Assembly: GCA_945947725.1 (NCBI GenBank)
Contig: CAMEYY010000001.1
Location: 1-41,492 of the forward strand
DNA length: 41,492 bases
Source: an uncultured Cytophagales bacterium
GTDB lineage: Bacteria; Bacteroidota; Bacteroidia; Cytophagales; Amoebophilaceae
Direction: 5' to 3'
Below, piece by piece: positions 2,728-39,772 of this stretch. Each line of letters starts with the position of its first letter. Position 1 is the first letter of the stretch. A model generated the notes under the pieces. That model was not told the origin of the DNA. It did not search any database and saw only the letters and a program-made list of their open reading frames with translations. Made by a program: the position numbers and the translations under genes.

Positions 2728-2781
2728 TTTACAAAATCCGATATTAAATAATATTGATATTATTGGTAAATTCTATAAATT

Positions 2782-3576
2782 GTGTCATCCGTAAAAAAAA
2801 TCCTCTTACATATCTCTGCAATGTTTTTAGCTTTATGCTTTTTAGCTTTTTTTACCTTCAAAATAATATTACCTATAACAACTAAACATAACGAAACTCT
2901 GATCATGCCAGATATTTTAGGACTTTACCCGGAAGACGTGAAAAGTATTTTAAAAGAAAATAATCTCAATTTCAAAATCATAGAAAATAACATCTACACA
3001 CTCTCCTACCCCGCTAACTCTATTATTGAACAAAACCCTATTCCAGATAGCACTATCAAATATGGTAGAACTGTTTATGTTAAACTTAACCCTCCTCACC
3101 CTCCTCTTATCAAAATCCCACGCCTCATCGATAAATCAATTCGTAATGTTTACAGTATCTTACAATCTCTTGGCATTAACATTGGAAAAATTTTATACGT
3201 CACCGATATCGCTGATAATGTTATCATCAATGCTTACCTTAACTCAAACCCTCTTCATGATAATGAAGAAATTCCTTTGGGGTCTTTTATCGATCTCGTC
3301 GTCGGTGTTAATAAACTTGAAACTGAAATCCCTGATTTCTCTGGAATAAATGGAGCTGAAATCGAATTACGTCTCCTCGAAAATAAATTAAAATTAGGAA
3401 CAATAAAATTTTTGAATTCCGACAGCGTCAACTTTGAAAAAGGTATTGTTATAGAACAAAGTCAAAAAAATAAATATGTTCGTTGTGGAACCGCTATAAA
3501 CATTGTACTCGATGAACCTAAAATAGAAATCACCGAACAAGAAGAACAAAACGAAGATAACGAACAAAATAATTAA
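2782..3576 (+). CDS. Membrane-anchored PASTA-repeat protein
   Basis: N-terminal TM helix followed by about three repeats of ~65 aa resembling PASTA domains (MPDILGL..., IPRLIDKS..., IPDFSGING...). The start is GTG at 2782; an in-frame ATG 13 codons downstream is an alternative. Confidence 0.6.
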   Translation: MSSVKKILLHISAMFLALCFLAFFTFKIILPITTKHNETLIMPDILGLYPEDVKSILKENNLNFKIIENNIYTLSYPANSIIEQNPIPDSTIKYGRTVYVKLNPPHPPLIKIPRLIDKSIRNVYSILQSLGINIGKILYVTDIADNVIINAYLNSNPLHDNEEIPLGSFIDLVVGVNKLETEIPDFSGINGAEIELRLLENKLKLGTIKFLNSDSVNFEKGIVIEQSQKNKYVRCGTAINIVLDEPKIEITEQEEQNEDNEQNN

Positions 3577-3578
3577 AT

Positions 3579-6821: not shown

Positions 6822-8794
6822 GCGCAGAGAAAATTGTTGATGCAAAATACAAAGTTAATGAAAACATAAATCCTGGTGATGATTTTTATAAATACGTCTG
6901 TGATAACTGGAAAAAAGAACATCCACTTCCAAAGGTTTATGGACAATATTCTGTCTTCAATGTTTTAGCGGAAGAAAATGAAAAGAAAATTTTTAATATC
7001 TTGGACGAACTCAGCAAGAAAAAGTTAGAAAAAGGATCTATCGAACAGAAAATATATGATCTTTATTCTCTGGGAATGGATATGAAGAAAAGAAATAACG
7101 ATGATGTCAAAGACCTAAAAAATATTTTTTCTGAAATCGAAAACGCAAAAACGATAAAAGAACTTCGAGATGTACAATATAAGTACTGTTTCATGAACTT
7201 CTCTTTCCCAATGCACATAAGCTTTTCTAGCGACGATAAAAATTCTGACGTCAATATATGTAACGTGTGGCAAGGTGGTTTATCTTTACCAGAAAAAAAT
7301 TATTATCTTTCCGACGATAAAGAGATGCAAAATATCCGTGAGGAATTCAAAAAACATATTGTCACGATGTTTAAAATTTTCGGTTTCGATGAAAAAACTG
7401 CTCAGAACAAAATGTCTTTGATTTTCAATTTTGAAACAGAACTCGCAAAGATAAGTCGAAGTCGTGAAGAACTAAGAGACCCAGTAAAAAATTATAACAA
7501 AATATCTCTCGATGACTTTTTAAAAAAATATCCTAACATACCTCTTGTTGAATTTTATGCAGCTAAAGGTGTCGATAAAAAATATTTACAAGAAATCGTT
7601 GTTGGACAACCTGAGTATTTTGCAGGCGTAGATGAAAAAATAAAAAATCAAAGTGTCGCCGAATTACAAAGTTTAATGGAATTTGATTTAATCTGTTCTT
7701 TTGCCTCGTTTCTCAGCGACGAAGTCATTGACGCCAATTTTAATTTCTTTGGTAAAATTCTTTCTGGTAAAAAAGAAAAACATCCTCTCCAAAAACGTGT
7801 TTTGAATCAACTTGAAAATTTTGTCGGGAATGCTATATCGAAATTATTCTGTGAAAGATTTTTTCCTGAGTCTTCAAAAAATAAAATGCTAGAACTTGTT
7901 GAACATTTACAAACTGCTTTTGCTGAAAGGATTTTAGCGCAGACGTGGATGTCAGAAAAAACAAAATTGAAAGCATTGGGAAAGTTGAGTAGTATGAAAG
8001 TGAAGATAGGTTATCCTGATAAGTGGGAAGATTTCTCTGAGTTGAAAGTCGATAAAAATAAAAGTTATTTCTTGAATATCTTGGAGTGCTCGAAGTTTTT
8101 ACATGATAAAAAATTAAAAGAGACAGTAGGTAAACCTGTAGATAAAGACAAATGGCTTTTTGATTCTCATATTGTTAATGCTTGTTATATTCCAAATTAC
8201 AATACCATATGTTTCCCTGCCGGTATTTTACAACCTCCTTTTTTTGACCCTAAAGCTGATGACGCTGAAAATTTTGGAGCTATCGGTGCTATTATTGGAC
8301 ATGAGATGACGCATGGTTTCGACGATCAAGGACGTTGGTTTGATAAAGATGGAAATATGGAATCGTGGTGGGGTGAAAAAGAGGAAAAAGATTTTAAAGA
8401 TAAAAACAAAGTGTGCGAAGATTTCTTCGATAAAATAGAAGTTTTACCTAATCTTCATGCTAACGGTAAATTAACTTTAGGAGAAAATATTGCTGATCAC
8501 GGTGGTGTGAAAATTGCTTTCACTGCTTACAAAAAGAAAACAAAAAATGGACACTATGTTGTGAAAAATGGTTTTACTCCTGAACAAAGATTTTTTATTT
8601 CTTTTGCTTCTCTATGGGCTAGTAATGAAACTGAAGAAACTATAAGATTTTATACAAATATCGACCCTCATTCTCTCAGCTATTTACGTGTAAATGGATG
8701 TTTGCCGCATATCGATGAATGGTATGACGCTTTTGATGTAAAAGAGAATAATAAACTCTTTATAAAAAAGGAAAAACGATTCAATATCTGGTGA
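6815..8794 (+). CDS. M13 family zinc metallopeptidase (PepO / neprilysin-like)
   Basis: 659 aa. HEMTHGF (HExxH), ENIADHGG (ENxADxGG), and the N-terminal DDFYKYVCDNW motif typical of M13. No obvious signal peptide. Confidence 0.9.
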   Translation: MISAEKIVDAKYKVNENINPGDDFYKYVCDNWKKEHPLPKVYGQYSVFNVLAEENEKKIFNILDELSKKKLEKGSIEQKIYDLYSLGMDMKKRNNDDVKDLKNIFSEIENAKTIKELRDVQYKYCFMNFSFPMHISFSSDDKNSDVNICNVWQGGLSLPEKNYYLSDDKEMQNIREEFKKHIVTMFKIFGFDEKTAQNKMSLIFNFETELAKISRSREELRDPVKNYNKISLDDFLKKYPNIPLVEFYAAKGVDKKYLQEIVVGQPEYFAGVDEKIKNQSVAELQSLMEFDLICSFASFLSDEVIDANFNFFGKILSGKKEKHPLQKRVLNQLENFVGNAISKLFCERFFPESSKNKMLELVEHLQTAFAERILAQTWMSEKTKLKALGKLSSMKVKIGYPDKWEDFSELKVDKNKSYFLNILECSKFLHDKKLKETVGKPVDKDKWLFDSHIVNACYIPNYNTICFPAGILQPPFFDPKADDAENFGAIGAIIGHEMTHGFDDQGRWFDKDGNMESWWGEKEEKDFKDKNKVCEDFFDKIEVLPNLHANGKLTLGENIADHGGVKIAFTAYKKKTKNGHYVVKNGFTPEQRFFISFASLWASNETEETIRFYTNIDPHSLSYLRVNGCLPHIDEWYDAFDVKENNKLFIKKEKRFNIW

Positions 8795-8826
8795 AAAAAC
8801 AAGTCATAAATTTATATATGATATAT

Positions 8827-9783
8827 ATGAAAAAAAATTACTTAGTCGAAATCGCATTGTCTACGTGCGTGTTATATAATTGTAGTTCAGAATCAGAACA
8901 ATATGATGAATTTGGGGATCAATATGATGATGAGTATGTATTTAAAACACAAAATGATGATGTAGAAAAGATAGAAAAAATATTAAATAATACATTATCC
9001 TCCGGAAAACCAATAAATGAAAATCAAAATAATCAATTAGACAAATCATTAAGATCATTACTTAATAAATCCAAAGACAAAATATCTTCTTTTTTTGAAC
9101 AAAACGAGATTGAAATAGAGCAAAAAGAAGTGGATGATGTAATCGATAATTTATGTTCTGTTTTCGTTGTTTTAACAAATGCAGTATCCGGAAACAATAT
9201 AAATAAAGAGCAAAATGATCAACTAGAAACATCTTTGAAATTTTTACTTGATAAATCCCAAAAACTCCTATTTTCTTCTCTTGAAATAGAACAAAAAGAA
9301 GTGAAAGATGTAATCAATAATTTATGTTCTGTTTTCGTTATTTTTACAAATGCAGTATCCGGAAATAATATAAATGAAAATCAAAATGATCAACTAGAAA
9401 AATCTTTGAAATTATTACTTAATAAATCAAAAAAACTCCTATTTTCTTCTTCTGAAATAGACCAACAAAAAGAGGATGATGTAATCAATAGTTTATGTTC
9501 TGTTTTCGTTGTTTTTACAAATGCATTATCCGGAAATATTATAGATAAAGATCAAAATGATCAACTTAAAAAATCTTTGAAAGATTTTAAAATATTATTT
9601 GGTAAAAGTGAGACTTCTTCGGTTTCTAAAGCGGAACTAAAAAAATTTATTCAAGGTAAGATACGATCATTTAGACCAAGACGAGGTCTCAAGGTGGTCT
9701 TACCTGAACAACTAAAAAAAAGATGTAACAACGCTTTAGATGTTATCGTAAATGCCTATTGTGATGGCACACAAGAAAAATAA
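8827..9783 (+). CDS. Predicted lipoprotein with ~57-aa tandem repeats
   Basis: I prefer the ATG at 8827 (MKKNYLVEIALSTCVLYNC|SS, signal plus Cys) over the GTG at 8791, which overlaps the upstream stop. About 3.5 internal repeats (..NQNDQLEKSLKLLLNKSKKLLFSS.EIEQKEV.DVINNLCSVFV.FTNAVSGNNIN..). Confidence 0.6.
   Translation: MKKNYLVEIALSTCVLYNCSSESEQYDEFGDQYDDEYVFKTQNDDVEKIEKILNNTLSSGKPINENQNNQLDKSLRSLLNKSKDKISSFFEQNEIEIEQKEVDDVIDNLCSVFVVLTNAVSGNNINKEQNDQLETSLKFLLDKSQKLLFSSLEIEQKEVKDVINNLCSVFVIFTNAVSGNNINENQNDQLEKSLKLLLNKSKKLLFSSSEIDQQKEDDVINSLCSVFVVFTNALSGNIIDKDQNDQLKKSLKDFKILFGKSETSSVSKAELKKFIQGKIRSFRPRRGLKVVLPEQLKKRCNNALDVIVNAYCDGTQEK
9001..9600 (+). repeat. Intragenic tandem repeat, period 171 bp (first unit 186 bp), about 3.5 copies
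   Basis: The landmark 'tccggaaa' recurs at 9001, 9187, 9358 and 9529. 'gtaatc(g/a)ata' recurs at 9139, 9310 and 9481. Confidence 0.85.
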
Positions 9784-9893
9784 TGTTAATCTTTGTAGAT
9801 CAAATTTCTAATAAAAACACTCATCGTTCTTGGTAGCGTTTTGTAAAAAAATATTAACAAAGGTATTAAATTACTATATCAACAATAAAAATC

Positions 9894-10706
9894 ATGAAAA
9901 ATTTTCGTTACGCCATAATTAGTACTTGTTTTGCTTTTTTCACTCACAATAATTCTATCGCTAGTCCAAAGATCGAATTGATCGCTTCCGATGAATCTTC
10001 ACATGTGTGTAAAATAGGGGTTTTTGCTGGATGGAATGCTCTTAGTGGTACTCAAACTTTTTCAAAATTGGTAGAGTTTCAAAAAAGTAAATTTTTAACT
10101 ACTAGTAAGAATCCAAAATTTAAGTCTGACTGGCTCAATTATAATACCGGTTTACATTTTGGATACACGCGTTTCTTTGATAGAAACTGGGGATGGAATG
10201 TGCTCGATACTCGAGGAGGATATAATAAATATGCAACCTACTCTGTCGTTGATAATACTAAAAATTCTTTCACATATAAAGGATTTTTTGTTGATGTAAT
10301 GTCTGGTATCGCTTATAATTTCAAAAAAGATGGTTTGGATTTCGAAGAAGGAAATCAATTTGGTAATCGTCTTGTCTTAAATTTTAACGCTGGAATAAAT
10401 TTTAACTTCTGTTCCTTCGCTATAAAAGGTAATCCTGATTTTACTGCGGAATTTCTTGATGCTCATTTCGACGGTACAACTCAGGGGTGGAGAATTGTTT
10501 GTGAACCTTCTATCGAATGGGTGAAAAACAATGGATTTTTAGCAAAAATGGCTCTTAATATGAATTTCTTAGGTCCTTGGAAATCTGAAAAAAATCAAGC
10601 TGAGGAATTCCTTTTACCTAAAAATAAAGTTCAAAAACTTCCTGGTACATTTTCTATCGCTCCTACCATCGAATTCGGTTGGGATTTCAGTGCTTTAATA
10701 AATTAA
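9894..10706 (+). CDS. Secreted protein, possible outer-membrane beta-barrel
   Basis: 270 aa with a signal peptide (..THNNSIA|SP). Alternating aromatic/Gly-rich segments (GYNKYATYSV, GINFNFCSF, IEFGWDF) suggest beta strands. No family recognised. Confidence 0.4.
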   Translation: MKNFRYAIISTCFAFFTHNNSIASPKIELIASDESSHVCKIGVFAGWNALSGTQTFSKLVEFQKSKFLTTSKNPKFKSDWLNYNTGLHFGYTRFFDRNWGWNVLDTRGGYNKYATYSVVDNTKNSFTYKGFFVDVMSGIAYNFKKDGLDFEEGNQFGNRLVLNFNAGINFNFCSFAIKGNPDFTAEFLDAHFDGTTQGWRIVCEPSIEWVKNNGFLAKMALNMNFLGPWKSEKNQAEEFLLPKNKVQKLPGTFSIAPTIEFGWDFSALIN

Positions 10707-11928: not shown

Positions 11929-13194
11929 ATGAAAAAAGTTGCTTTATTCAAACTTGGATTTTTGACAAGCATGTTATTAAATTGTGGTCTTCAAAATAAT
12001 CAAACTAAGAGATTATCATCTGACAATTTTGGAAATATAAAAAAAGATTTAAAAACTCGCGAAACTTACGTTCAGAGTCAAAATAATCAAAACGACCAAA
12101 AACAAACCTCGACAAAATTAAATCAAACTACATCTGTAACACTTATAGATCTTGAAAAAAAACTTAATGAAAATATACAGGAAATAGAAAATTTAAAAAC
12201 ACAATCTGCTCAACAACAAATAGATTCACAAGCATTGGAAACTCAAAAACAGAAACTTGAAAATTTTACAACAATACTTACAGATAAAGACAATCAGATT
12301 AAAGAATGTCAAACAAAAATAAATCAATTAAAATTAACAATCGAACAACAGAAGAATGATTTACTTCAACAGATTAATGATCAAAAAGAACAAATTGAAA
12401 ATGAAATTAAAAAAAAGGAGAAAAACATAAAAGCATCAGATACTACGGAAGAGTCAAAGGAAGAAAAATCTAAGAAAAAAGAAAAAGCTAAAAAAATTGA
12501 AACTTTACAACAAATCAATGATTTAAATGGAATTACAACTAAAACACAAGAACTTGAAAAACAACTTCAAGCTCAAAGACAAAAACTTACAAATCTTGAG
12601 AACGAATTTAAACAAAAGTTTGAAACTCAGAAAAAACAAATAGAGAGTGATAAAGAAAAATTAGAGACAATAAAAAATTTACAACAACAACAACAGAATA
12701 CAAATTCAGAAAATCTTAACAAGCAAAAAGACGAATTGGAAAAGTTAAAAAAAGAGATTCAGAGTGCAAAAGAAAAGACAACAGTAAAATCAGAGTCTAA
12801 GTGTAAAATATCAAAACAAGAACTTGAAACACTTAAAGCAGAACTTACCGAGAAGATTAATAAAAAAGCTGATCAAACTACTTTAACAGAATTAGAAAAT
12901 ATTATTAAAGAAAAATCAGAGACAATAAAAAATTTACAAAAACAAATTCAAGAACAGCAAGACGCTTTGAAAGATGTGCAAGTTCAAAAACAAAACCTTG
13001 AAAAATTAGAACAAAAACTAAAAGCTAATTTAGAGCAACTAAAAAAAGAATTTACAAAGAACAATAAGGAAAACAAACAAGCAACATCATCTCTGAACGC
13101 ACTTTTAAAACAGCAAACAATATTGGTAAATAATTTCCAACAAGATACTAACGAAAACCTTTCTCAATTGGATACAATAAAAAAAACAATTTGA
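11929..13194 (+). CDS. Q/N/K/E-rich coiled-coil lipoprotein, 5' part of a frameshifted longer gene
   Basis: Signal plus Cys (MKKVALFKLGFLTSMLLNC|G), followed by about 400 aa of heptad-like low-complexity sequence. It terminates just after an A8 run at 13179-13186. Confidence 0.7.
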   Translation: MKKVALFKLGFLTSMLLNCGLQNNQTKRLSSDNFGNIKKDLKTRETYVQSQNNQNDQKQTSTKLNQTTSVTLIDLEKKLNENIQEIENLKTQSAQQQIDSQALETQKQKLENFTTILTDKDNQIKECQTKINQLKLTIEQQKNDLLQQINDQKEQIENEIKKKEKNIKASDTTEESKEEKSKKKEKAKKIETLQQINDLNGITTKTQELEKQLQAQRQKLTNLENEFKQKFETQKKQIESDKEKLETIKNLQQQQQNTNSENLNKQKDELEKLKKEIQSAKEKTTVKSESKCKISKQELETLKAELTEKINKKADQTTLTELENIIKEKSETIKNLQKQIQEQQDALKDVQVQKQNLEKLEQKLKANLEQLKKEFTKNNKENKQATSSLNALLKQQTILVNNFQQDTNENLSQLDTIKKTI

Positions 13195-13753
13195 TCAGTT
13201 TAAACAAGAAACAAAGCAAACATTAGAGTCTTTACAAAAACAAAATACACAACTACAAGGAGAGATTTCGTCAAAACATGAAGAAATACAACAAATTCAA
13301 AAAGTACTTTCTGAAATTAAAAAACAAGGAGAAGAAATTGAAAAACAATTTAAACAAACATTAAATAATGATAAACAATATTTAATAGACAATTTCAGTG
13401 AATCAATAGAAGATATCCAAGATATTCTTGAAGAAAAAGCAGATCAAGATAAGATTAACAAACTTGAAGAGAATCTTAAGGATTCTATTGAAGAAATAAC
13501 AAGGAAGTTACAAAAACAAAATCTTGCAATTATAACTATAAAAAATTATCTTTTAGAAAAATTTTCTTTTTCCCCTTTGAAAAAAGAAAATTTTAAGAAA
13601 AAATTTGCGGATATTGATGAAACTAATATTGTATCACCAAGATTTATACATAATAGTCCTAATGGTTCTCAATCAAATACTAAAACAAAATGTTCACCAT
13701 TATACCAAAGTTCAAGTTTTACTGTAAGTACAAAGAAAGATAACAAACCTTAA
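13187..13753 (+). pseudogene. Out-of-frame continuation of the coiled-coil lipoprotein (188 codons, no internal Met)
   Basis: My translation gives an open frame from 13187 (QFDQFKQETKQTLESLQKQNTQLQGEISSKHEEIQQIQ...KKDNKP, stop at 13751-13753). It has the same coiled-coil character. It is absent from the ORF track only because it has no Met. Confidence 0.6.
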
Positions 13754-13789
13754 AATAACCAAATTATACAGGATATCTATTAAAATTAG

Positions 13790-13915
13790 AACAGAAATTA
13801 GCCGAGCTACAAGATGAAATTACAAAAAATTAGACGCTCTATTAGTTACACTTGAAACTCAAAAAAAAACAACAACAAGATCTTCAACAGAACTAGAAAA
13901 AAAGTAGGAAAAATT
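13790..13915 (+). pseudogene. Decayed fragments of a further coiled-coil paralog
   Basis: Short coiled-coil-like reading frames (LEQKLAELQDEITKN*, KLDALLVTLETQKK...) interrupted by stops and frameshifts at A6 and A9 runs. Confidence 0.4.
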
Positions 13916-14097
13916 ATTTATTCAGAATCCAAATCTTTAATAAACTTTAAACAAAACATAGGATTATAAATTATATACTTTTTTACTAACAAAAGAAATT
14001 AAGATCATATTAATTTCAAAATTTTTGAATATTAATTTTAAATTAATATATTTTTTAATATACATTTTTATGAATTTTTAATAAACGTTGTTATAAT

Positions 14098-15669
14098 ATG
14101 AAACGAACCATTAACTTTTTTAAAATTATATTTTTAACCAATCTACCTTATAATTGTACAGTCAAAGAACCTGATAATGCATGCAATGAAACTTATCAAT
14201 CTCTCAAGAATTTGAAAAAACAAACTTCAATACAGATAGAAGATAATAATGATAGACAAACTCGTAATTTTGATAATTTCAAAAATGATTTTCAAGGGCA
14301 AATCAATAATGTTTTTATGCAACTGGACGAACAAAAAACAACTAATAACAACTTATCAAATGGTATTAAAACACAATTTAAAAAGGAAATAGAAGCACTT
14401 AAAACACAGCTTGGACAACAACAACAAAAGCTTAAACAACAAGATGAGACAATAGAAAAGTTAAATAATGAACTTAAAAATAAAGCTGACAACAATATAT
14501 TAGTTGATTTTGATGATCTTAAAAGTAAACTTAATGATCAAACAAAGGAATTAAATAATCTTAAAACACAACAACAAGAGCTTAAAACACAAAAAGAAAA
14601 TCTTGAAAATAAACTTAATGATGAAATAGATAAATTCAAAAATGAGCTTAATGAGCTTAAAGAAAAACTTATAAAACAAAATACGTCACTTGTAAATCAA
14701 AAAGAGGATATATATGAACAATTCAAAAAGCTAACAGATGATTTTAAAACTAAGTTTGAAGATTTAGCAAGTAAAATTAAAAACGAAAACGAACAAAAAT
14801 TAAACGATGTAACTAACTCAATTGTAAATGATATTAATGAACTAAATAAACAACTTACCGAACTGAGAAATCAAATAACGAGTATGAAATCTAACCTCAG
14901 TGAAAAAGTAGATCAAACCAAAATTGAGGAAATAAAAAAACAAATTCAAAAAGCTCTTAACGAGTACTTAGATGAGAAGGTAAACAATCTAGAAGAAATT
15001 AACACACAACAAAAACAAAAATTAGATGATCAAACAAAGGAATTAGATAATCTTAAAACACAACAACAAGAGCTTAAAACACAAAAAGAAAATCTTGAAA
15101 ATAAACTTAATGGTGAAATAGGAAAATTCAAAGATGAGCTTGATAAGTTTAAAAAACAACTTGACGAACAAAAGAACAATGCTGAATCGTTATTAGAAAA
15201 ACTAAACAAACAAGATGCAGAACTGAATGAACTAAAGAATGCACTTAAGGAAATAAAATTATTAGAAAGTAAAATCGAAGAATTGGGAAAAGACATTAAC
15301 CAACAAAAAGAAGATTTTAATAATCAATTTCAAAAACAAAATGAAACGCTTGGCAAGAAAGCTGACGAAGAGCAGCTTAACAATGAAATAAAACAACGAG
15401 AAGATGCACTTAACAATCAAACACATGATTTGTTTTGTGTTAAGGCTAAGATTTCTAATATATTATTAGGCATTTTGGATCTCTTTAGGAAAGATTTTAT
15501 AGCACTACAAGCAAAAATCAATGCAATACAAACAAATAAAAATAATACGAGTGTTAATCTAAATAGTTTGATGGGAAAAATTGAGGCGTTGGATAAGGAT
15601 CTTCAGAATCTTTTTGAAAGAAAAAAGGAAAATATTTTTGAAAACAGAAATGAAGGAGGTAATGAATAA
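14098..15669 (+). CDS. Q/N/K/E-rich coiled-coil lipoprotein paralog
   Basis: 523 aa, signal plus Cys (..FLTNLPYNC|T), coiled-coil composition. An internal direct repeat of ~110 bp occurs at 14536 and 15028. Confidence 0.7.
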   Translation: MKRTINFFKIIFLTNLPYNCTVKEPDNACNETYQSLKNLKKQTSIQIEDNNDRQTRNFDNFKNDFQGQINNVFMQLDEQKTTNNNLSNGIKTQFKKEIEALKTQLGQQQQKLKQQDETIEKLNNELKNKADNNILVDFDDLKSKLNDQTKELNNLKTQQQELKTQKENLENKLNDEIDKFKNELNELKEKLIKQNTSLVNQKEDIYEQFKKLTDDFKTKFEDLASKIKNENEQKLNDVTNSIVNDINELNKQLTELRNQITSMKSNLSEKVDQTKIEEIKKQIQKALNEYLDEKVNNLEEINTQQKQKLDDQTKELDNLKTQQQELKTQKENLENKLNGEIGKFKDELDKFKKQLDEQKNNAESLLEKLNKQDAELNELKNALKEIKLLESKIEELGKDINQQKEDFNNQFQKQNETLGKKADEEQLNNEIKQREDALNNQTHDLFCVKAKISNILLGILDLFRKDFIALQAKINAIQTNKNNTSVNLNSLMGKIEALDKDLQNLFERKKENIFENRNEGGNE

Positions 15670-19304: not shown

Positions 19305-19376
19305 GGTCGTGTAGTTCAATGGATAGAATAGAAGTTTCCTAAACTTTTGATGCAGGTTCGATTCCTACCATGGCCA
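19305..19376 (+). tRNA. tRNA-Arg (anticodon CCT)
   Basis: Hand-folded cloverleaf. Acceptor GGTCGTG/CATGGCC (two G-U pairs); D arm GTTC-AATGGATA-GAAT; anticodon stem GAAGT/ACTTT with loop TTCCTAA. T arm GCAGG-TTCGATT-CCTAC (one C-A mismatch), 4-nt variable loop, discriminator A. CCA is not encoded. Confidence 0.75.
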
Positions 19377-20139: not shown

Positions 20140-21276
20140 ATGAAGTTAGAAATATCATCATCGTCATTGTACAAAAAAATAACGATGCTTGCAGGAGTTA
20201 TCAATGCTAAACCTTTAGTTGCTATATTGGAAGATTTTTTATTCTCTGTCAAAGATAACGTTTTATCTATTACTGCTTCCGATTTACAAACAACGATAAC
20301 GACAAAAATGAAAGTTCAAAACGCTGACGATTTCTCTGTTGCTATACCATCAAGGATTTTATTAGACACATTGAAAAATTTATCAAATCAAAATATTACC
20401 ATAATCTCGGAAGAAAAATGTAACAACATAACTATCAAATCAGATTTTGGTGAATATGTTATCGCTGGCCACAACGCTAATGAATTTCCAACAGTAACCA
20501 TCGATAATAATTTCGAAAACCAATTTACTTTCTCTGGGAAAAAATTAAAACGAGCATTACAAACTTGTTTCCCTATCTCTAGTAACGATGCGCTCAAACC
20601 TGCACTCAACAGTATTTATTTCGATTTTATTGATAATGAATTAATTTGTGTTTCAACAGACATACATAGATTGGTAAAATACGAACTCGTCGACGAAAAT
20701 ATTGCTCAAGCAAAATCTATTATCGTTCCTAAAAAATCTGTTCAACAACTTATCAACCTTATCGATGATGCCGAAGATTTACAAATTACGAATTATAATG
20801 GAAGAGTTTGTTTTTATCTCCATGAAGGAGCAACACAAATCATCGCGTCAACGATAAATGAGAAATTCCCTAGCTACGACACCGTTATCCCTCACAACTA
20901 TGCAAACATAATGACGATTTACCGTTTAGACCTAGTTGCTTCGTTAAAAAGGTTGATGATTTATACCAATGCTGTCTCTCATCAAATTCAATTTTCTATC
21001 GAAGACAACAAACTGACTATTTTAGCAGAGGAAGTTAATTGTGGAAATATGGCTGTTGAAACTATTCCTTGTTCTTATCGTGGTGTTCAACCTATGTCGA
21101 TAATGTTCAACGTTAAAATTTTATTAGATCTTTTGCAAAATATCGACTTCGATGAAATAACTTTTAAATTCTCTGATGTAGATGAAAATGGAAAATCAAA
21201 TAAAGCCGTCGTTATCTCACCAAACTCTGGCGATGAAGAGAAAATTACCTCATTGGTAATGCCTATCTATTCTTAA
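20140..21276 (+). CDS. dnaN: DNA polymerase III beta sliding clamp
   Basis: 378 aa. Typical N-terminus (MKLEISSSSL...VINAKP..ILEDFLF......L.ITASDLQ), three-domain length, C-terminal ..LVMPI. Confidence 0.9.
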   Translation: MKLEISSSSLYKKITMLAGVINAKPLVAILEDFLFSVKDNVLSITASDLQTTITTKMKVQNADDFSVAIPSRILLDTLKNLSNQNITIISEEKCNNITIKSDFGEYVIAGHNANEFPTVTIDNNFENQFTFSGKKLKRALQTCFPISSNDALKPALNSIYFDFIDNELICVSTDIHRLVKYELVDENIAQAKSIIVPKKSVQQLINLIDDAEDLQITNYNGRVCFYLHEGATQIIASTINEKFPSYDTVIPHNYANIMTIYRLDLVASLKRLMIYTNAVSHQIQFSIEDNKLTILAEEVNCGNMAVETIPCSYRGVQPMSIMFNVKILLDLLQNIDFDEITFKFSDVDENGKSNKAVVISPNSGDEEKITSLVMPIYS

Positions 21277-21280
21277 TTTT

Positions 21281-30937: not shown

Positions 30938-31049
30938 TTTTGCAAACTTTACTTTACTTATAGCAATTTTTTGAAGAATAACAGATTATAACATCCTTTT
31001 TTTTAGCTCTACATAGCGCCGTTTATCTAAAAATTAAAAACGAAAAAAA

Positions 31050-31107
31050 TAAGTTTAATTTTACTTGATTAATTCATTTTTGTGTCCGATGCTCTCGGCA
31101 TGAACAA
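31050..31107 (+). repeat. Conserved upstream-plus-start module, copy B (paralog of 38392-38449 on the minus strand)
   Basis: Gapless hand alignment gives 48/58 identical bases. This includes an exact GC-rich 17-mer GCTCTCGGCATGAACAA, with the ATG in the same register. Confidence 0.85.
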
Positions 31108-31276
31108 GAAAAATGTGTTCCTCAATTTATTGAGTATTTATGGGATGACGTTTGCCCAAGGTATAAGGAATACCGAAAATCAAAAGTTAGATTATAACGA
31201 TGTAATAATTAATGTTGATACAGAGCAATTACTAAAGCACGACGAGATGAATGTGTTTTGTGAAGATTGTTCATAG
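31100..31276 (+). CDS. Small 58-aa protein ending in CxxC, paralog of the 18-aa ORF beside the radical SAM gene
   Basis: MNKKNVFLNLLSIYGMTFAQGIRNTENQKLDYNDVIINVDTEQLLKHDEMNVFCEDCS. ATG at 31100, within the track ORF 31082..31276. TAG stop lies 2 nt before the next gene's ATG. Confidence 0.45.
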   Translation: MNKKNVFLNLLSIYGMTFAQGIRNTENQKLDYNDVIINVDTEQLLKHDEMNVFCEDCS

Positions 31277-31278
31277 AC

Positions 31279-32163
31279 ATGAAAAATTTTGATTTTTTTG
31301 TATTAGCCTTAGGTATTTGTAATTTATTTCCTTCTTGTAATTCTCGAAATTATTTAGCTGCAAATTATTCCAATGATGAAAAGTTTAGAGGTGTTCAAAA
31401 TATAACAATCAAAAATGGACCTGGTAATATTACAGTTCAACCTACAGCAGATGCTAATAACGATGAAACGATATTAGAATTAGAGGGTGAAGAGAGAGAT
31501 GAGGTGAATGTTAAGCAAGAAGGTTCCACACTTTTTGTGACGAGGCCAGGTAATCCTAATGAGGTATTATTTTATGCACCAAAACCTATAAATATAACGT
31601 TATACATTGCTCCTACTGTTAACTCTTTACAATGTAAAATGGGACGTGGAAAATTTTCAATGGATAATTTTATTGGGAATTTGAATTTGGAAGGGGGTAT
31701 TAGTGATATTTTTTTGAGAGATATTACAGGGTATATTAACTTAGACACAGGGAAATCCAAATTTAATATCGAAAATATAACCGGAAATATAGATATACAC
31801 TCTGGACCTATAGAACAAGGAAATTTTCAAAGAATATCAGGTAATGTCAACATAAGAGCCTCTCAATTTAATTTAGTTCTTTTTGAGATATTCGGAAATA
31901 TTAATCTAAGAGGTGCTGGGTTGTTGAATTATACAATGTTGACTAAACCAAATTTCCCAATATTTATAACGTTTAAAGGGAAAAATGTTTTTTGCAATGT
32001 TTATTTATCTAACGCTTTTCGCTGTATTGATAATACAATAAAAGGACGTCATAATAATATCTTTTCTATTTTTCCATACGTCTCGGGTATAAGAGCGATA
32101 GGTGATGTAAACTTTTGTGGAAATCTGCATGATAGTACATTGCAAATTCAAAATGTAAATTAA
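31279..32163 (+). CDS. Predicted lipoprotein with beta-helix-like GN(I/L/V)N repeats (DUF4097 / putative-adhesin-like)
   Basis: ATG at 31279 (MKNFDFFVLALGICNLFPSC|N). Repeats of roughly 20 aa: FIGNLNLEGG, ITGYINLDTG, ITGNIDIHSG, ISGNVNIRAS, IFGNINLRGA. Confidence 0.5.
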   Translation: MKNFDFFVLALGICNLFPSCNSRNYLAANYSNDEKFRGVQNITIKNGPGNITVQPTADANNDETILELEGEERDEVNVKQEGSTLFVTRPGNPNEVLFYAPKPINITLYIAPTVNSLQCKMGRGKFSMDNFIGNLNLEGGISDIFLRDITGYINLDTGKSKFNIENITGNIDIHSGPIEQGNFQRISGNVNIRASQFNLVLFEIFGNINLRGAGLLNYTMLTKPNFPIFITFKGKNVFCNVYLSNAFRCIDNTIKGRHNNIFSIFPYVSGIRAIGDVNFCGNLHDSTLQIQNVN

Positions 32164-32611
32164 TTTTTACTTGATTATTTTTTAATTTCTTGCATCTCTT
32201 GGTTTGAATAAGGATTATTTATTCAACATTATCTTCACTGTTCGATAGTCACTATCCTTTTCCTATTTAAAATTTGATACGACTTTTAGTTGAGTAAAAA
32301 CAACTTCAACGTAATAGCAATTGCATTTCTTGTTTATTCACTTTATTGCCCGTTAAAACGATCATGTACGATTTATTCGTTAAGATATCCAACTCTGTGT
32401 TTAAAATTTATAGTTAACATCATAATCTGCATAAATCATTTTTTTATTATAACATCCTTGTTTTTTTGTTAGTTAAAAATTGTCAAATACTATCATCAGC
32501 GTCAATATTTTTCCTCTTCAGAAAGCTCATGAGTTTTACACATTATGAGTCTATATGAAAAACTTTAAGATTTTTCTATTAAAATATTTTAAAATTTTAT
32601 CAACAAAAAAG

Positions 32612-32967
32612 TTATCCACATTTTATAAAAATAGGTCATAATAGACTGACAGATGAGAGGTTTGGTGAAAACGTAAAAAATTAAAATGTGGATAACTTTT
32701 AGAGACCTTCAAAAAATGTGGATAACTTTTTCAAAAATGTGGATAACTTAACAAAAAAATGTGGATAACTTTCCGTTTTTGCGCCCCGGCCGGCCCCGAA
32801 AATCCGCCGGCAATTGAAGGCTTTTGCACGTTTTTGTGGCAAAAAAATAAAAAAATGAAATTTTGATATATTTTTATTATTATAATAATAAAAAAAATTT
32901 TTTCTTCTTATAAGGGGGGTTTGGGGGGAAATTTCTTCTTTTTACATCTTGCAAAAAATGTGGATAA
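32612..32967. other. oriC-like region: six perfect DnaA boxes flanking an AT-rich tract
   Basis: TTATCCACA at 32612-32620. TGTGGATAA at 32687, 32717, 32738, 32760 and 32959, each inside the 16-mer AAAATGTGGATAACTT. Nearly pure A/T runs from about 32841 to 32912. Confidence 0.8.
32781..32811. other. GC island (26/31 G+C) inside the origin region
   Basis: gcgccccggccggccccgaaaatccgccggc, read directly. It contains the self-complementary cores CCGGCCGG and GCCGGC. Confidence 0.9.
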
Positions 32968-35409: not shown

Positions 35410-36468
35410 ATGAAAATAAAAAATGTATTATTGGTGATGTTGCCTACAGCTGTTTCTTCATGTGTGATTGAAAAACCTGTTGATTGTAGATGCAAGAAGA
35501 TAGATTATCCTGATGAAAATCTAAAAAAACAGTTAGAAGATATTAAAACAAATTTCGAAAAGGCTAGTAATGGAAATCTTTCAGATTTTATAAAGTTCGA
35601 AGAACAGATAATAGATAAAGTCAAAAAAGAAGACAATCGTATTAAGGATGAGAGCGGTAAACAGTTTACTAAATCTTTAAAGGATGAAAATACCTTGAAT
35701 GATTTAAAAAATAAGTTCGGAAATTTAGGGACTGCGATGTTTTTGGATTCTAATTTAAAGTTTTTCTTAAATCCTGTATATCAGGAAACAAATCGGAAAA
35801 CGAATTTTGTGAATGATTTCTTTAACAAACGTGATGAAATAAATAACAAAATTAATTCTGTTGCATGTAAGGATATAAAGGTTTCGCTTTTTGATGTTAA
35901 AAATTTAAAATTTGACGATTTATCTAAGATTTTTGATTTTGATTATAAATGTCAGGATTTGAATGAATGGTTTAAGTTGGTTTCTCTTTTCGGATATTAC
36001 TCTGTTGAAAATTTATTATTGCCTGTTGAATTTAAAGACGATAACGGAAATAACATCGGTAAAGGTTTCGTTTGTGATGGTTTAAATTGTATTCAGTGGG
36101 GACTTCTTTTTGAAAAGAATGTAAGTGAAGAGCGTCAAGAAAAATGTTTTAATACAATGAAGGAAATCTTTAAGAATGTTGTTTTGAAAGATAACACTAT
36201 TATTTCTAAAAAGATTAGATTCTTCTGTAATGAAAAATCTATTTGGGATAAATTGTCTGCTTTTTATAAAGAAAGTACAGACGAAATGTTTTTTCTTGAT
36301 AAACTTAAGGATTATTCTAAATGGTTTTGCCACTGCTGTTGTTATAACGATATTACCGATGAAAGATTTTTAAATTTTGGCTTTCCTTGTGTAGGCTTTG
36401 CTCAAAGAAATGGTTTATATTGTTGTAATTTTAGTGGTTCTTTAAAAAAATCAGCTACTACTGTCTAA
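35410..36468 (+). CDS. Predicted lipoprotein with Cys-rich C-terminus, unknown function
   Basis: 352 aa, signal plus Cys (..LPTAVSSC|V). The C-terminal ~60 aa contains WFCHCCCYND...FPCVGF...LYCCNFSG. Confidence 0.5.
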   Translation: MKIKNVLLVMLPTAVSSCVIEKPVDCRCKKIDYPDENLKKQLEDIKTNFEKASNGNLSDFIKFEEQIIDKVKKEDNRIKDESGKQFTKSLKDENTLNDLKNKFGNLGTAMFLDSNLKFFLNPVYQETNRKTNFVNDFFNKRDEINNKINSVACKDIKVSLFDVKNLKFDDLSKIFDFDYKCQDLNEWFKLVSLFGYYSVENLLLPVEFKDDNGNNIGKGFVCDGLNCIQWGLLFEKNVSEERQEKCFNTMKEIFKNVVLKDNTIISKKIRFFCNEKSIWDKLSAFYKESTDEMFFLDKLKDYSKWFCHCCCYNDITDERFLNFGFPCVGFAQRNGLYCCNFSGSLKKSATTV

Positions 36469-36542: not shown

Positions 36543-36890
36543 TTAAAACACAAACTTTGACAGTTCAATTAGGATAACTAAAATACCAAATAAAACACAT
36601 AGCTTATCACCAAAATCCATTTGTCGTTTTAATTTTTTTTTCAATAGGTAATAAGGAATAAAGATAACAAATACTGTCGCTATCATCCCACCGAACGAGA
36701 GTATGTTGATAAAGGCATTGGGAATCGCGATACACAAAACAATAGGAATAATACAAACAATAGCACTTGCTACAACCCTTGATTGAGAGATAGTCTCTTC
36801 TATAGATTTTTTCAAACCCAATCCTATACCAATGGTCGACGTTATGATAGCAAATAAACTCAATATTTTGAAAAATATTTCCATATACAT
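36543..36890 (-). pseudogene. C-terminal ~115-aa fragment resembling HAAAP-family (Mtr/TnaB/TyrP-type) aromatic amino acid permeases
   Basis: ..IAIPNAFINILSFGGMIATVFVIFIPYYLLKKKLKR.. parallels the remembered E. coli Mtr C-terminus ..[34 protein letters not shown]... Full-length family members are about 400-415 aa. An in-frame stop lies just upstream of the first Met. Confidence 0.45.
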
Positions 36891-37020: not shown

Positions 37021-38337
37021 TTATTGTTGAGAGAGTAAGTACGCAAGTAACATCTTCTCTTTTAGATTATACCTCGTTGTTGGACAAGGTAGATTTCCAT
37101 CCTGCCACTGTTTTGGGCAAGCTCCTGCACAAGTAGGAAATATCTTACATTTTCTACATGGAGAATCAGCGTCGGTAATCTTTTTAAATTTTTCAAACAC
37201 ATCTCTCGCTCTACATACTCCCATTTCTAAATCACCAATCTGATATTTATGTAAACCATTCTCTATATACGCATCAACTAAACCCACCTCGGAGCAAGGA
37301 AATAGATTGCCTTCAGGATCGGACATTATCGCATGTTCACTAGTATACAAACAACCATATTTTCGTTTTGGCAAAGGTTTCACTCTAAAACCTAGTTCTA
37401 TCAACTTCGACATTGCCTGGATCTCCAAGTTAGCAAATTCTTCTTGTTCTATAGCTTTTTCTCCTGCATCATTACCCCAATCATGAATAGGCGCAAGGTA
37501 AACAAAAAGATTTTTATATCTTTCCAAATGATCTGCATGTAAAATATCTATCAAATGAAAAATCGCCTCGCTATTCCTCATATCGACATTACATCTCAAT
37601 GTTACTTCAACTTCAGGATTATTTTCAACAATTTTCAAAAGACCTTTAAAGTTATTATACACGTCATCAAAAGTTCCTTGTTTCCCTTTCAGACAACGTC
37701 GTGCATTATGTTCTTCTGCGTTACCATCTATTGTTATTCCCCAAAAATTGATCTTGCATTTTTTTACACAAATATTGGCACGCTCCTCTGTTAATAAAGA
37801 AGCATTAGTTGCAATATGAGATACATATTTAACATTTTCTTCTTTACAAAGTTGTATCAATCTTGGAGCTAAACTTTCAATAACATCCAAAGCCAATATA
37901 GGTTCTCCTCCAAACCACCCTAAAAACAACTCTTCAAATTTTTTTGTTTGTAATTTCGTTTTAATATCTTCAAAAATACGATCTTGATTTTCTTTTGACA
38001 GTTTTACATTTTTATGATTTTGTCCACAATAATCACATCCAAAATTACAAGTTCCACTTACCATCACCACATATCTCAACGTCCTATTTACAAGAGTTTT
38101 ATTCTCTTCTAAAATTTCTTTAAACTCATCTACAGTATCGTTAACTAAAAAATCTTCCACGAAAGCTTGAGGTATTTTCTCAAGAGAGTTTCCATTTTGC
38201 AAAATCACGTTAATCTCTTCCCAAAAGACTTTTGAAACAATAGAGAGCTTACTATTCTTAGAATTAAAAATTGCTACTAAATCCTTATTATCTTTACAAA
38301 ACTCAACAGTTTCGACAAAATTCGATATTTTCAACAT
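37021..38337 (-). CDS. Radical SAM / SPASM-domain peptide-modifying enzyme with N-terminal RRE-like extension
   Basis: CNFGCDYC (Cx3Cx2C) at residues ~102-109 of the track ORF. C-terminal SPASM motif CRKCKIFPTCAGACP (Cx2Cx5Cx3C). About 95 aa precede the cluster, with a PqqD-like pattern (LVAIFNSKNSKLSIVSKVFWEEINVILQNGNSLEKI). ATG at 38337 preferred; GTG at 38352 is possible. Confidence 0.85.
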   Translation of the reverse strand: MLKISNFVETVEFCKDNKDLVAIFNSKNSKLSIVSKVFWEEINVILQNGNSLEKIPQAFVEDFLVNDTVDEFKEILEENKTLVNRTLRYVVMVSGTCNFGCDYCGQNHKNVKLSKENQDRIFEDIKTKLQTKKFEELFLGWFGGEPILALDVIESLAPRLIQLCKEENVKYVSHIATNASLLTEERANICVKKCKINFWGITIDGNAEEHNARRCLKGKQGTFDDVYNNFKGLLKIVENNPEVEVTLRCNVDMRNSEAIFHLIDILHADHLERYKNLFVYLAPIHDWGNDAGEKAIEQEEFANLEIQAMSKLIELGFRVKPLPKRKYGCLYTSEHAIMSDPEGNLFPCSEVGLVDAYIENGLHKYQIGDLEMGVCRARDVFEKFKKITDADSPCRKCKIFPTCAGACPKQWQDGNLPCPTTRYNLKEKMLLAYLLSQQ

Positions 38338-38342
38338 TTTAT

Positions 38343-38399
38343 TTATAAACACAAATCACAAAGATCATGTATTCTCGCAAATACACATTCTTTGTTCAT
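38343..38399 (-). CDS. Unannotated 18-aa Cys-rich ORF (MNKECVFARIHDLCDLCL), candidate precursor peptide
   Basis: My translation of the minus strand. ATG at 38399 and TAA at 38345-38343, 5 nt upstream of the radical SAM ATG. Too short for the ORF track. It has a paralog at 31100-31276. Confidence 0.45.
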   Translation of the reverse strand: MNKECVFARIHDLCDLCL

Positions 38400-38449
38400 G
38401 CCGAGAGCGTGAGATACAAAAAAGAATAAATCAAGAAAATATCAACTTA
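38392..38449 (-). repeat. Conserved upstream-plus-start module, copy A (paralog of 31050-31107)
   Basis: See copy B. It runs from the S41 stop codon to the first three codons of the 18-aa ORF. Confidence 0.85.
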
Positions 38450-39772
38450 TTTTTTATTACTTATCAATTCATAAACTTTATCCATCGCATCTTCCGCTTT
38501 AACTAAAATATCTGGAGTTAGTCGAGCAGGATCTTTTGTTGGATCAGGACGGTAAAATTTTTTAAAAGTCGTATGGAAGACCACGTGTGAATTAGGCAAA
38601 GAAAAATCTCCTGTACAATCACCAAAACTTTCCGGTGAATTGCCTGGGACCTCTCCTATGACAGTCGCTAAATTATTGTCGGAAAAATAGTATGCAAATA
38701 TTAATCCACTACTGAAAGTTAAATTAGAAGTCAAAATATAAAAGTTACCATCAAAAAGATTGTCCTTCGACATCCAATTTTTGAGTGCTTCTTCGTTTAT
38801 TTCCTCTTTATTATTTATTATTTTATTTCCATTTCGAACTTCACTTCTTCCACCTAACTTTTTACAATTTGGATATTTTTTTAAGTACTTTATAAAATAA
38901 TTTATAACACAACTATTTCCACCCCTGTTACGCCTCAAATCAACTACGATATTGTTTATGTTATCTTTTGCAACATCGACAAAGAAACCGTCAATCATAG
39001 GTGCGTAATCGGTTCTACAATCGTCCATCTTAAAAATTCCCAAATCATTTTCTTCATCAATGACGTACGACACTGGCGGAGCAGCAGTAAAATGCTTTTT
39101 TCTAAAAATTCTAAAAAATTGTTCCTTAACAATACCTTTATCTGTGTTAAAAGTTATCTCAACAGGCTTTGTCACATCAACACCCGATCGTGCTAAAATA
39201 TCAGCGCTTAAACATTTAGACCTTTCAAAGAAAATAGCATGAGCCCATTCTTCAATTTCATAAGACCAGTGTTGTTTGAAATTTTCATACAATTCAGAAA
39301 TCTTGACCCCGTTAACTTCCATTATCTCCGCGTCTTTAAATCTTCCACTATCACAGAAAATTTTATTACCTATATTACGAGTCTGAAAAGGTAGTTGTTT
39401 ACAATTTAAAAACTTAGGACAATAAGTAACAGAGTGTGCGTCATGTAATTTTTTTAGGATACGAGAAAGTATTTTCCAAACTTCTATAGTACTCGTATGA
39501 TCTTGCAAATTTGCAATTTCAACATCTCTCTGCTGCAAAACTTCTTGAGGTACTTCCTTGATACAACTCATGTGGTGTTGTTTGACTTTATTAATCGCAA
39601 AGTCGATATCTTCTATAACTTGTTGTTTCGTAAAAAATTCATTTTTTTTACTCTGGAGCAGTTTGACAGTCTTTGTCTTTCTTGTTGTCGATGTTTTATG
39701 TTTTATAACAATTCCAATGGAAGTTAAAAGTAATAAAGTAAAAGAGCCTAAGACTTGTTTACTGATTTTCAT
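38447..39772 (-). CDS. S41 family serine peptidase (C-terminal-processing-protease-like), membrane anchored
   Basis: I prefer the ATG at 39772 (MKISKQVLGSFTLLLLTSIGIV). Motifs are VVDLRRNRGGNS and LTSNLTFSSGLIFA (catalytic Ser region). Confidence 0.8.
   Translation of the reverse strand: MKISKQVLGSFTLLLLTSIGIVIKHKTSTTRKTKTVKLLQSKKNEFFTKQQVIEDIDFAINKVKQHHMSCIKEVPQEVLQQRDVEIANLQDHTSTIEVWKILSRILKKLHDAHSVTYCPKFLNCKQLPFQTRNIGNKIFCDSGRFKDAEIMEVNGVKISELYENFKQHWSYEIEEWAHAIFFERSKCLSADILARSGVDVTKPVEITFNTDKGIVKEQFFRIFRKKHFTAAPPVSYVIDEENDLGIFKMDDCRTDYAPMIDGFFVDVAKDNINNIVVDLRRNRGGNSCVINYFIKYLKKYPNCKKLGGRSEVRNGNKIINNKEEINEEALKNWMSKDNLFDGNFYILTSNLTFSSGLIFAYYFSDNNLATVIGEVPGNSPESFGDCTGDFSLPNSHVVFHTTFKKFYRPDPTKDPARLTPDILVKAEDAMDKVYELISNKK

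Follow-up and report, generated by a model that had tools for sequence, protein, structure and literature searches.

A 58-residue peptide gene, a Toastrack-like lipoprotein gene and a radical-SAM/SPASM maturase gene as a probable split three-gene set in an uncultured Cytophagales bacterium

A 41,492-nt contig from an uncultured Cytophagales bacterium of the Amoebophilaceae (CAMEYY010000001.1; the whole of this stretch is hereafter called the window) carries two short open reading frames (ORFs) that begin almost alike and lie about 7 kb apart: one of 58 codons that precedes a lipoprotein gene at 31.1-32.2 kb, and one of 18 codons beside an inverted radical-SAM/SPASM maturase gene at 37.0-38.3 kb. 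Which of the two encodes the substrate of the maturase, and what is the other? The original prediction, whose description of both ORFs was accurate, saw in them a small peptide family with the long form as the leader-plus-core substrate and the short form as an internally deleted derivative, or alternatively a duplicated promoter/leader cassette. The features of the window that bear on this question are as follows.

31044-31099, plus strand: upstream module, copy 1, the putative promoter/5'UTR segment of about 55 nt of the long peptide gene
31100-31276, plus strand: intact precursor-peptide gene of 58 codons plus stop, recognized by its homologues, motifs and dN/dS
31279-32163, plus strand: DUF4097/Toastrack-like lipoprotein gene, 294 aa, N-terminus MKNFDFFVLALGICNLFPSC, starting 2 nt after the peptide stop
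32139-32248, plus strand: third, decayed module with the remnant of a start, directly after the lipoprotein gene (repeat D18, 74%)
37021-38337, minus strand: radical-SAM/SPASM peptide maturase gene, 438 aa with an N-terminal RRE-like domain, recognized by Pfam matches, fold and cysteines
38399-38343, minus strand: 18-aa ORF MNKECVFARIHDLCDLCL, most likely what an internal deletion has left of a peptide gene beside the maturase
38400-38455, minus strand: upstream module, copy 2, likely promoter/5'UTR of the maturase gene, aligning with all module copies

We compared the two starts at the nucleotide level. Aligned without gaps and with their ATGs in register (the A lying at 31100 on the plus strand in the long copy and at 38399 on the minus strand in the short one), positions 31050-31107 (plus) and 38449-38392 (minus) are identical at 48 of 58 bases, which reproduces exactly the match, the shared 17-mer and the register first reported. 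The GC-rich 17-mer GCTCTCGGCATGAACAA is found at exactly two sites in the window, 31091-31107 (plus) and 38392-38408 (minus), and was absent from 100 of 100 dinucleotide-preserving shuffles. Longer stretches gave identities of 54/64 over 31044-31107 and 61/76 over 31044-31119, repeat finding recovered a 76-nt inverted repeat (I1, 80%), and copy 1 of the module is 80-84% identical to 38400-38455 (minus). The local alignment score of the two module copies was 47, against a maximum of 21 among 500 shuffles and a best score of 18 for the module against the remainder of the window. A third copy could also be discerned (local score 26 versus a maximum of 22 in 500 shuffles; its module alone scored 22, the rest of the window reaching 18 at most). 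Here TTG at 32204 replaces the ATG and opens a 14-codon remnant, NKDYLFNIIFTVR, followed by a stop, and this copy contains no credible ORF. It occupies the slot held by the second peptide gene in a related locus, L001, and would be a further relic of a tandem peptide array.

The 58-aa peptide has the sequence MNKKNVFLNLLSIYGMTFAQGIRNTENQKLDYNDVIINVDTEQLLKHDEMNVFCEDCS, with a hydrophobic, leader- or signal-like N-terminus (MNKKNVFLNLLSIYGMTFAQG) and the C-terminal core DEMNVFCEDCS, which contains N51-x-x-C54-x-x-C57. We placed its start at the ATG at 31100, and not at the GTG at 31082, because all homologues begin with MNKK; its stop codon (31274-31276) lies 2 nt before the lipoprotein ATG (31279), the spacing originally noted. 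A full-length peptide profile detected 28 clusters among 5.8 billion proteins, and a peptide search of 1.84 billion proteins returned 7 representatives. All of the approximately 28 homologous clusters are of metagenomic origin; the sources of the family are Logan/ENA assemblies and one JGI contig, and the profile yielded zero members in GTDB species genomes and JGI metagenome contigs. N-terminal MNKK..FLNLLS.YG and C-terminal MN.FCE.C are invariant across the family. When 11 peptides were aligned across lineages, M1, G15, C54 and C57 were invariant, L11 and N51 were conserved at 90% or more, and N51 of the NxxC motif was kept in 10 of the 11 peptides of the gene set; one family member, P0129, lacks C57. 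Pairwise dN/dS among the aligned long peptide genes, a comparison suggested together with the original prediction, ranged from 0.09 to 0.31 with dS near 1. Moreover, the peptide is conserved as a protein in loci where the DNA no longer aligns (L173, L011, L012 and P0269/P0270). The invariant motifs and the low dN/dS therefore establish the 58-codon ORF as a genuine conserved gene under purifying selection, and the segment 31050-31276 probably represents the sole intact peptide gene copy in the window, with its own promoter module.

The maturase gene is intact and all of its cluster cysteines are present. The protein matched Radical_SAM (E 6.4e-10) and Fer4_12 in Pfam, and its homologues exceed the cut-off of the SPASM model TIGR04085. 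The CxxxCxxC motif at C97/C101/C104 (GTCNFGCDYCGQ) is invariant in 16 aligned homologues, as are C329, C348, C394, C397, C403, C407 and C418. In the AF2 model (pLDDT 89), the closest PDB fold was CteB over the full length (E 1e-17, TM 0.66), followed by anSME, and CteB was also the sole PDB match by sequence (E 1.8e-9). Residues 1-85 were modelled with pLDDT 85-95 as strands 8-15, 18-25 and 30-35 and then helices 36-48, 57-63 and 71-83, a predicted layout of three strands and three helices that is RRE-like. Among NCBIfam models, the best scores were obtained with TIGR04463 (rSAM_vs_C_rich; 200.7 bits, cut-off 525), Clo7bot (169, cut-off 600), CefB (135, cut-off 600) and PapB (107, cut-off 340). 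Relatives scored 184-209 bits with TIGR04463, and five further family members likewise fell under all curated NCBIfam cut-offs tried. Since the window's enzyme and these five members are all far below the cut-offs, the maturase group is a separate family that has no NCBIfam model. The closest homologues of the window's maturase come from metagenome assemblies, and a metagenome scan with a profile of the close clade recovered relatives of at most 35% identity only.

Relatives of the maturase are encoded in a recurring order of one or more peptides, a DUF4097/Toastrack-like exported protein and the radical-SAM/SPASM enzyme, over a range of maturase identity from 77% down to 34%. The related loci, with the identity of their maturases to that of the window, are given below.

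L003, 89%: a 30-aa ORF before the maturase
L004, 81%: a full-length peptide gene directly before the maturase
L001/L002, 77%: peptide, Toastrack-like protein and maturase, in that order
L173, 51%: peptide with the C-terminus ...DMGWNAGCNNCSG
L011, 44%: peptide with the C-terminus ...DEWNAGCSSCSN
L012, 40%: two peptides with the C-terminus ...DEWNAGCAQCKG
L013, a Holosporaceae MAG, 34%: a 146-aa signal-peptide protein with three C..N..C repeats

Across these lineages the peptides retain the C-terminal N-x-x-C-x-x-C and the N-terminal L..G. The genes of L001 share a strand and encode, in order, a peptide of 59 aa, a lipoprotein homologue of 271 aa, two further 59-aa peptides, a frameshifted fourth and the maturase; the peptide-Toastrack pair is also present in L175, and in a remote member of the peptide family, P0269, the peptide gene is followed by a DUF4097-like one. 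In L004, L001, L173, L011 and L012, full-length homologues of 57-65 aa immediately precede either the maturase or the pair of lipoprotein and maturase, and peptide genes hold this position in 6 independent loci. Together with the dN/dS of the long genes, this arrangement supports a small peptide family whose long form is the substrate, and the window likely carries a split version of the contiguous three-gene set. We found no description of the peptide/Toastrack/maturase set in the literature searched. An S41 peptidase is encoded upstream of the short ORF; we rejected it as a further component, since L003, L011, L012 and L173 lack it.

The lipoprotein of the window matched Pfam DUF4097 (PF13349) with an E-value of 2.7e-4 and 20.8 bits, under the gathering cut-off of 22.9, and is 40% identical to its partner protein in L001. 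DUF4097 was matched by 4 of 5 partner proteins (best E 1.6e-7), and the L012 partner has a precomputed DUF4097 match on record. The partner proteins carry lipoprotein or signal sequences. When 175 loci were examined with an HMM of the partner proteins, matches were confined to L001/L002, L173, L011, L012 and L013 and all of them adjoined a peptide or maturase gene. The recurrent gene order and this confinement argue that the lipoprotein is a conserved member of the system and not an unrelated neighbour. The Toastrack domain is a single-stranded beta-helix that has been proposed to form a protein-docking surface near the membrane, although an intracellular location has been argued for it in other settings (PMC11237479).

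Taken as a whole, the model that we consider probable has the following steps. The maturase would bind the leader of the 58-aa peptide in the cytoplasm and would then join Cys54 to Asn51 by a thioether, closing an NxxC ring; the modified peptide would be exported and act with the lipoprotein in the envelope; and the peptide copy on the maturase side would have lost its interior, its promoter, start and 3' junction being kept to express the maturase.

The last of these steps concerns the 18-aa ORF, whose stop lies 5 nt before the maturase ATG (38337). At its 5' and 3' ends it matches the full-length gene of L004, about 123 nt being absent from the interior, as expected of the internally deleted derivative originally proposed, and it lacks both FLNLLS.YG and DEMN..C. 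The orthologous maturase-adjacent site is occupied by an intact gene in L004, a frameshifted one in L001, the 30-aa ORF MTKKNVFEMIYVANQKFDCNVDNCFGIFCL in L003 and the 18-aa ORF in the window, so that one intact copy stands beside three that have degraded, each in its own way; the window's form is the most reduced of these copies and keeps the 5' end and the last codons. The five synonymous differences between the short and long forms that had been listed (in Lys, Val, Phe, His and Asp codons) are all present. They had been read as coding-type conservation, and this reading held in part: the differences are real, but they fall within only 14 alignable codons, and the 18-aa peptide has lost both motifs. 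Over these codons synonymous sites are saturated and pN is 0.21, in an alignment made by hand with the C-terminal pairing chosen by eye, and we do not rely on the result. Shared ancestry, together with a retained promoter and start, accounts for the likeness of the two forms better than present selection on the 18-aa peptide does, and the resemblance peaks upstream and in the first codons because the coding part on the maturase side decayed while the promoter and start were kept. In all likelihood, then, the 18-aa ORF is a relic whose main remaining role is that of a promoter/start cassette for the maturase.

An alternative is that both forms function, the adjacent maturase acting on the 18-aa peptide as a minimal substrate with a short leader or none, and the 58-aa peptide being a paralogue with another role. 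The short ORF does remain in frame to the ancestral stop, retains C-x-x-C and one further residue, shows an NxxC by position in N2-K-E-C5 and stops 5 nt short of the maturase start; the figures for the 14 codons could be read in its favour, and the nearest NCBIfam model is rSAM_vs_C_rich, a name that we take to refer to 'very short Cys-rich' targets. However, the 18-aa ORF has neither the invariant FLNLLS.YG nor DE[MW]N..C, the RRE-like domain of the maturase implies a need for a leader, and the maturase-adjacent copy differs in each close relative, a pattern of decay and not of a conserved short peptide. Protein searches recovered no homologue of the 18-aa peptide, although ORFs this short are skipped by most gene callers. 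We therefore consider this alternative unlikely, while it is the best placed of the three that we weighed. Within the preferred reading of the 18-aa ORF as a relic, the fact that both the 18-aa and the 30-aa remnants run in frame to the original stop could reflect some remaining selection, on translational coupling or on the peptide itself.

To characterize the putative substrate motif, we turned to the wider maturase family, represented by 80 GTDB loci at 30-36% identity from cyanobacteria, planctomycetes, proteobacteria and Bacteroidota. For each locus the nearest upstream ORF with at least two cysteines was chosen blind to any motif, which gave 63 ORFs. Asn occupied the -3 position of 89 of 186 cysteines (49%) in these ORFs, compared with an Asn background of 6.3% and with 2-11% at other positions, and NxxC was present in 44 of the 63. 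NxxcB links Cys-S to Asn-C-beta in NxxC motifs (PMC9389541, PMC11851443), and in the documented comparison QmpB the link runs from Cys to Asn-C-alpha. From the NxxC enrichment and an enzyme class with these two precedents, we predict that C54 and N51 of the 58-aa peptide are joined by a thioether, giving a four-residue ring like that of NxxcB; an alpha-carbon link to Asn, as in QmpB, is equally possible.

The likeness to NxxcA/NxxcB lies in a radical-SAM/SPASM enzyme encoded with small precursors that have Asn three residues before Cys; it is a likeness of motif and enzyme class. In contrast to that streptococcal RaS-RiPP, the precursor here is signal-peptide-like with a single NxxC and a second Cys at the extreme C-terminus, the obligate neighbour is an exported Toastrack-like protein, and the loci come not from streptococci but from a Cytophagales lineage of low GC, from a Holosporaceae MAG and from further sources. 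No shp/rgg quorum-sensing genes were seen nearby, and the neighbours scanned included no Rgg-like regulator. With CteB, PapB (ranthipeptide/SCIFF), TIGR04463, Clo7bot and CefB, the maturase shares a radical-SAM core and a SPASM domain, preceded by an N-terminal domain predicted to be RRE-like. The precursor PapA is of the Cx3D type, and the precursors described here are unlike SCIFF, Cx3D (PapA) or Cys-every-fifth peptides. The second-best fold match, the anaerobic sulfatase-maturing enzyme anSME, is likewise a cytoplasmic radical-SAM/SPASM enzyme acting on a Cys-containing motif. It oxidises Cys/Ser to formylglycine in exported sulfatases, large enzymes that carry an export signal and are modified before export, whereas the substrate here would be an NxxC peptide of about 58 aa and the enzyme has an RRE-like domain. 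The partner proteins give weak DUF4097 and LiaG matches and in this respect resemble Toastrack proteins (DUF4097/DUF2154/DUF2807) such as LiaG; unlike the LiaG type, they are stand-alone lipoproteins or secreted proteins with no PspC, LiaF or two-component neighbours. In the literature searched, no paper joins Toastrack to a radical-SAM peptide system.

We then considered whether the N-terminus of the 58-aa peptide is a leader, a signal peptide or both. Its n-region, MNKK, has a charge of +2; the top 12-residue Kyte-Doolittle mean is 1.51 (VFLNLLSIYGMT), which is moderately hydrophobic, and T-F-A|Q is a candidate cleavage site. The N-termini look like canonical signal peptides in the homologues of L012, L013 and L174 and in the cyanobacterial members of the wider family. 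The N-terminus of the peptide is unusually conserved for a signal peptide and may serve purely as a leader. That FLNLLS.YG is invariant and that the maturase has an RRE-like domain suggest that the same segment doubles as a recognition leader. We favour modification in the cytoplasm with Sec export afterwards, because homologue N-termini are signal-like and the partners are lipoproteins or secreted; the action of anSME on exported sulfatases would be a precedent. A peptide-lipoprotein complex in the envelope is our working guess for the function, and is the weakest step of the argument.

The same signal-like N-terminus raises a second alternative, namely that the 58-aa peptide is secreted through Sec as a mini-protein and works alongside the lipoprotein without being a maturase substrate, the enzyme having some other target such as the lipoprotein. 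In its favour, peptide gene and maturase gene are not adjacent in the window or in L005-L010, and the lipoprotein contains NVFC, identical to N51-C54 of the peptide. That tetrapeptide is not conserved in the orthologues of L001, L011 and L012, and we accordingly rejected the lipoprotein as a candidate substrate. The placement of peptide genes directly 5' of the maturase or the lipoprotein-maturase pair in the 6 independent loci and the family-wide enrichment of NxxC in small upstream ORFs also speak against this alternative, which we regard as improbable. The preferred reading, in which the 58-aa peptide is the maturase substrate and the lipoprotein its partner, has to reckon with L005-L010, the closest relatives by ddl, which have the peptide gene with no lipoprotein gene after it.

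The upstream module accompanies the family throughout. The same segment lies 5' of every peptide gene copy in L001 (four times), L003 and L005-L010, and the best-conserved stretch comprises the 55 nt upstream and the first 7 codons. In all loci examined the module is accompanied by a peptide gene or a remnant of one, and modules upstream of unrelated genes devoid of such an ORF were not encountered. Because every peptide copy carries the module, whole genes must have been duplicated together with their promoters; the duplicated promoter/leader cassette offered earlier as the other option thus holds as well. That the repeat is a duplicated promoter, regulatory cassette or small repeat element alone, with an incidental likeness of the ORFs, draws on the module and first 7 codons being best conserved, the lack of a credible ORF in the third copy, the differing contexts of the genes that follow and the 5' edge at synteny breakpoints, but we hold it very improbable given that the module was never without a peptide gene or remnant, that the long ORF is conserved as protein in L173, L011, L012 and P0269/P0270 beyond DNA alignability and that its dN/dS is well under 1; for the long copy this reading is contradicted.

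Most module copies contain cATTTTTG 18-25 nt 5' of the ATG, with (G)TTG/TTT about 18 nt further upstream. The Bacteroidota sigma-A promoter has a -7 box, TAnnTTTG, with TTG upstream; cATTTTTG resembles this -7 box, and a promoter role for the module is predicted from that resemblance. Scans of the window for sigma-70 promoters and terminators gave background levels. A riboswitch or structured leader in the module was ruled out: across the whole window Rfam identified a tRNA at 19305-19376 alone and nothing in the module, and the consensus fold of 10 module copies in RNAalifold reached -0.3 kcal/mol with zero covarying pairs.

If the three genes form one set, how did they come to be about 7 kb apart? 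Inverting the segment between the third module (plus) and the module of the short ORF (minus) yields the order peptide, lipoprotein, remnant, maturase, as in L001. Given this restored order, the split may plausibly have arisen when inverted peptide modules recombined with each other. Of perfect DnaA boxes the window has six, and all of them (TGTGGATAA; 0.55 expected by chance) fall within 32612-32967, a cluster that sits between the two inverted modules. Apart from the maturase, the lipoprotein, ddl and one gene in common with L003 (20140-21276), no synteny was found between the window and its relatives, and the synteny breaks in L003 and L005-L010 fall at module edges (the 5' edge). The peptide gene adjoins ddl both in the window and in L005-L010, in the opposite orientation in the latter, and in L006 it is found about 880 nt downstream of an isolated 16S rRNA gene.

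Radical-SAM/SPASM peptide systems are a major source of new peptide chemistry, and those characterised so far mostly make peptides that mature in the cytoplasm and have dedicated exporters. The system described here would resemble a thioether-forming radical-SAM RiPP pathway, differing in its signal-like leader and its Toastrack partner. A Sec-like precursor with an exported beta-helix partner, in place of a protease or transporter, points to an envelope function and not to an antibiotic. A broader proposal is that this is a cross-phylum, three-component envelope system of a Sec-exported mini-protein with a C-terminal Asn-Cys thioether ring and a Toastrack lipoprotein, present in the Cytophagales lineage, the Holosporaceae MAG and a few more loci whose sequence looks low in GC, perhaps spread horizontally among host-associated bacteria, and that its multi-copy peptide modules act as recombination sites and have here inverted the segment with the candidate replication origin; we advance it tentatively, as possible but rather doubtful in its entirety. 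The wider enzyme family is widespread, has a testable NxxC substrate signature and lacks a curated NCBIfam model, and a single co-expression result could annotate hundreds of genes. For annotation, the locus illustrates that a tiny maturase-adjacent ORF can mislead when it is a relic and the true substrate gene lies kilobases away.

The host lineage of the window is low-GC (about 31%) Cytophagales. Its MnmG has a best named match of 83% in a Cytophagales MAG, other named matches being near 60%.

Perfect DnaA boxes (TGTGGATAA/TTATCCACA) occur six times in the window, against a chance expectation of 0.55, and all six lie within positions 32612-32967, in the 885-nt gap that extends from the gene for the Toastrack/DUF4097-like lipoprotein to the H+-pyrophosphatase gene. 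Five of the six are contained in a longer repeat, ATGTGGATAACTT. A dnaA gene was not seen adjoining the cluster. We consider this region a candidate replication origin. Two further features stand out from its otherwise AT-rich sequence, namely a GC-rich island (GCGCCCCGGCCGGCCCCG..., 32775-32815) and the run GGGGGGTTTGGGGGG (32905-32925).

Two ORFs of the window also stand out:

35410-36468, plus strand: 352-aa lipoprotein-like ORF, N-terminus ...PTAVSSC
36543-36890, minus strand: 115-aa ORF, matched by a Trp/Tyr permease profile at positions 272-371 of 393 only

The 352-aa ORF, located between the origin-like region and the radical-SAM/SPASM maturase gene, is very rich in Cys at its C-terminus (WFCHCCCYND...LYCCNF) and gave no match in Pfam or NCBIfam. 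The 115-aa permease-like ORF is probably a truncated pseudogene and as such would be a hint of genome decay. In L006, a locus from a close relative (ddl ~90% identical), the peptide gene is preceded by a complete 16S rRNA gene (1797-3316) at a distance of ~880 nt. Neither a tRNA nor a 23S gene follows this 16S gene on that contig. Such unlinked rRNA genes are characteristic of host-associated bacteria with reduced genomes. The stretch of the related locus L005 that is homologous to the L006 16S region (~7410-10001) is without a called gene.

Gene order in the window departs from that of its relatives at the 5′ edge of the module, the ~55-nt segment upstream of the peptide genes. These synteny breaks fall at window positions 31044 and 38455, at 1039-1100 in L003, and in L005-L010 (for example, at 1583 and 2276 in L007). 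The gene upstream of the L003 module matches window 20240-21278. The orientation of the peptide gene with respect to ddl is reversed in L005-L010. Peptide-gene modules may be recombination hot spots.

The exported parts of the system evolve much faster than the maturase: between the window and L001, identity is ~40% for the lipoprotein (31279-32163 vs 251-1066) and 48-64% for the peptides, as compared with 77% for the maturase. In L173, the maturase (1418-2740) is split into ORFs of 301 and 126 aa, so that the gene is a frameshifted pseudogene or else was misassembled. L174 carries a more distant cluster (406-4452; maturase 36% identical) with two additional genes, one for a luciferase-like monooxygenase and one of 280 aa. 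The 215-aa partner in this cluster was not recognized by the HMM that we built for the Toastrack-like partner, and the precursor ends in ...VWDSSCTNNGSC, combining DxxC with NxxC.

Elsewhere in the window, three 171-nt repeats stand in tandem within a coding region (9110-9622), and two large ORFs (11929-15669) contain long, repetitive, coiled-coil-like sequence rich in Lys, Glu, Gln, and Asn, with a GC content of 25%.
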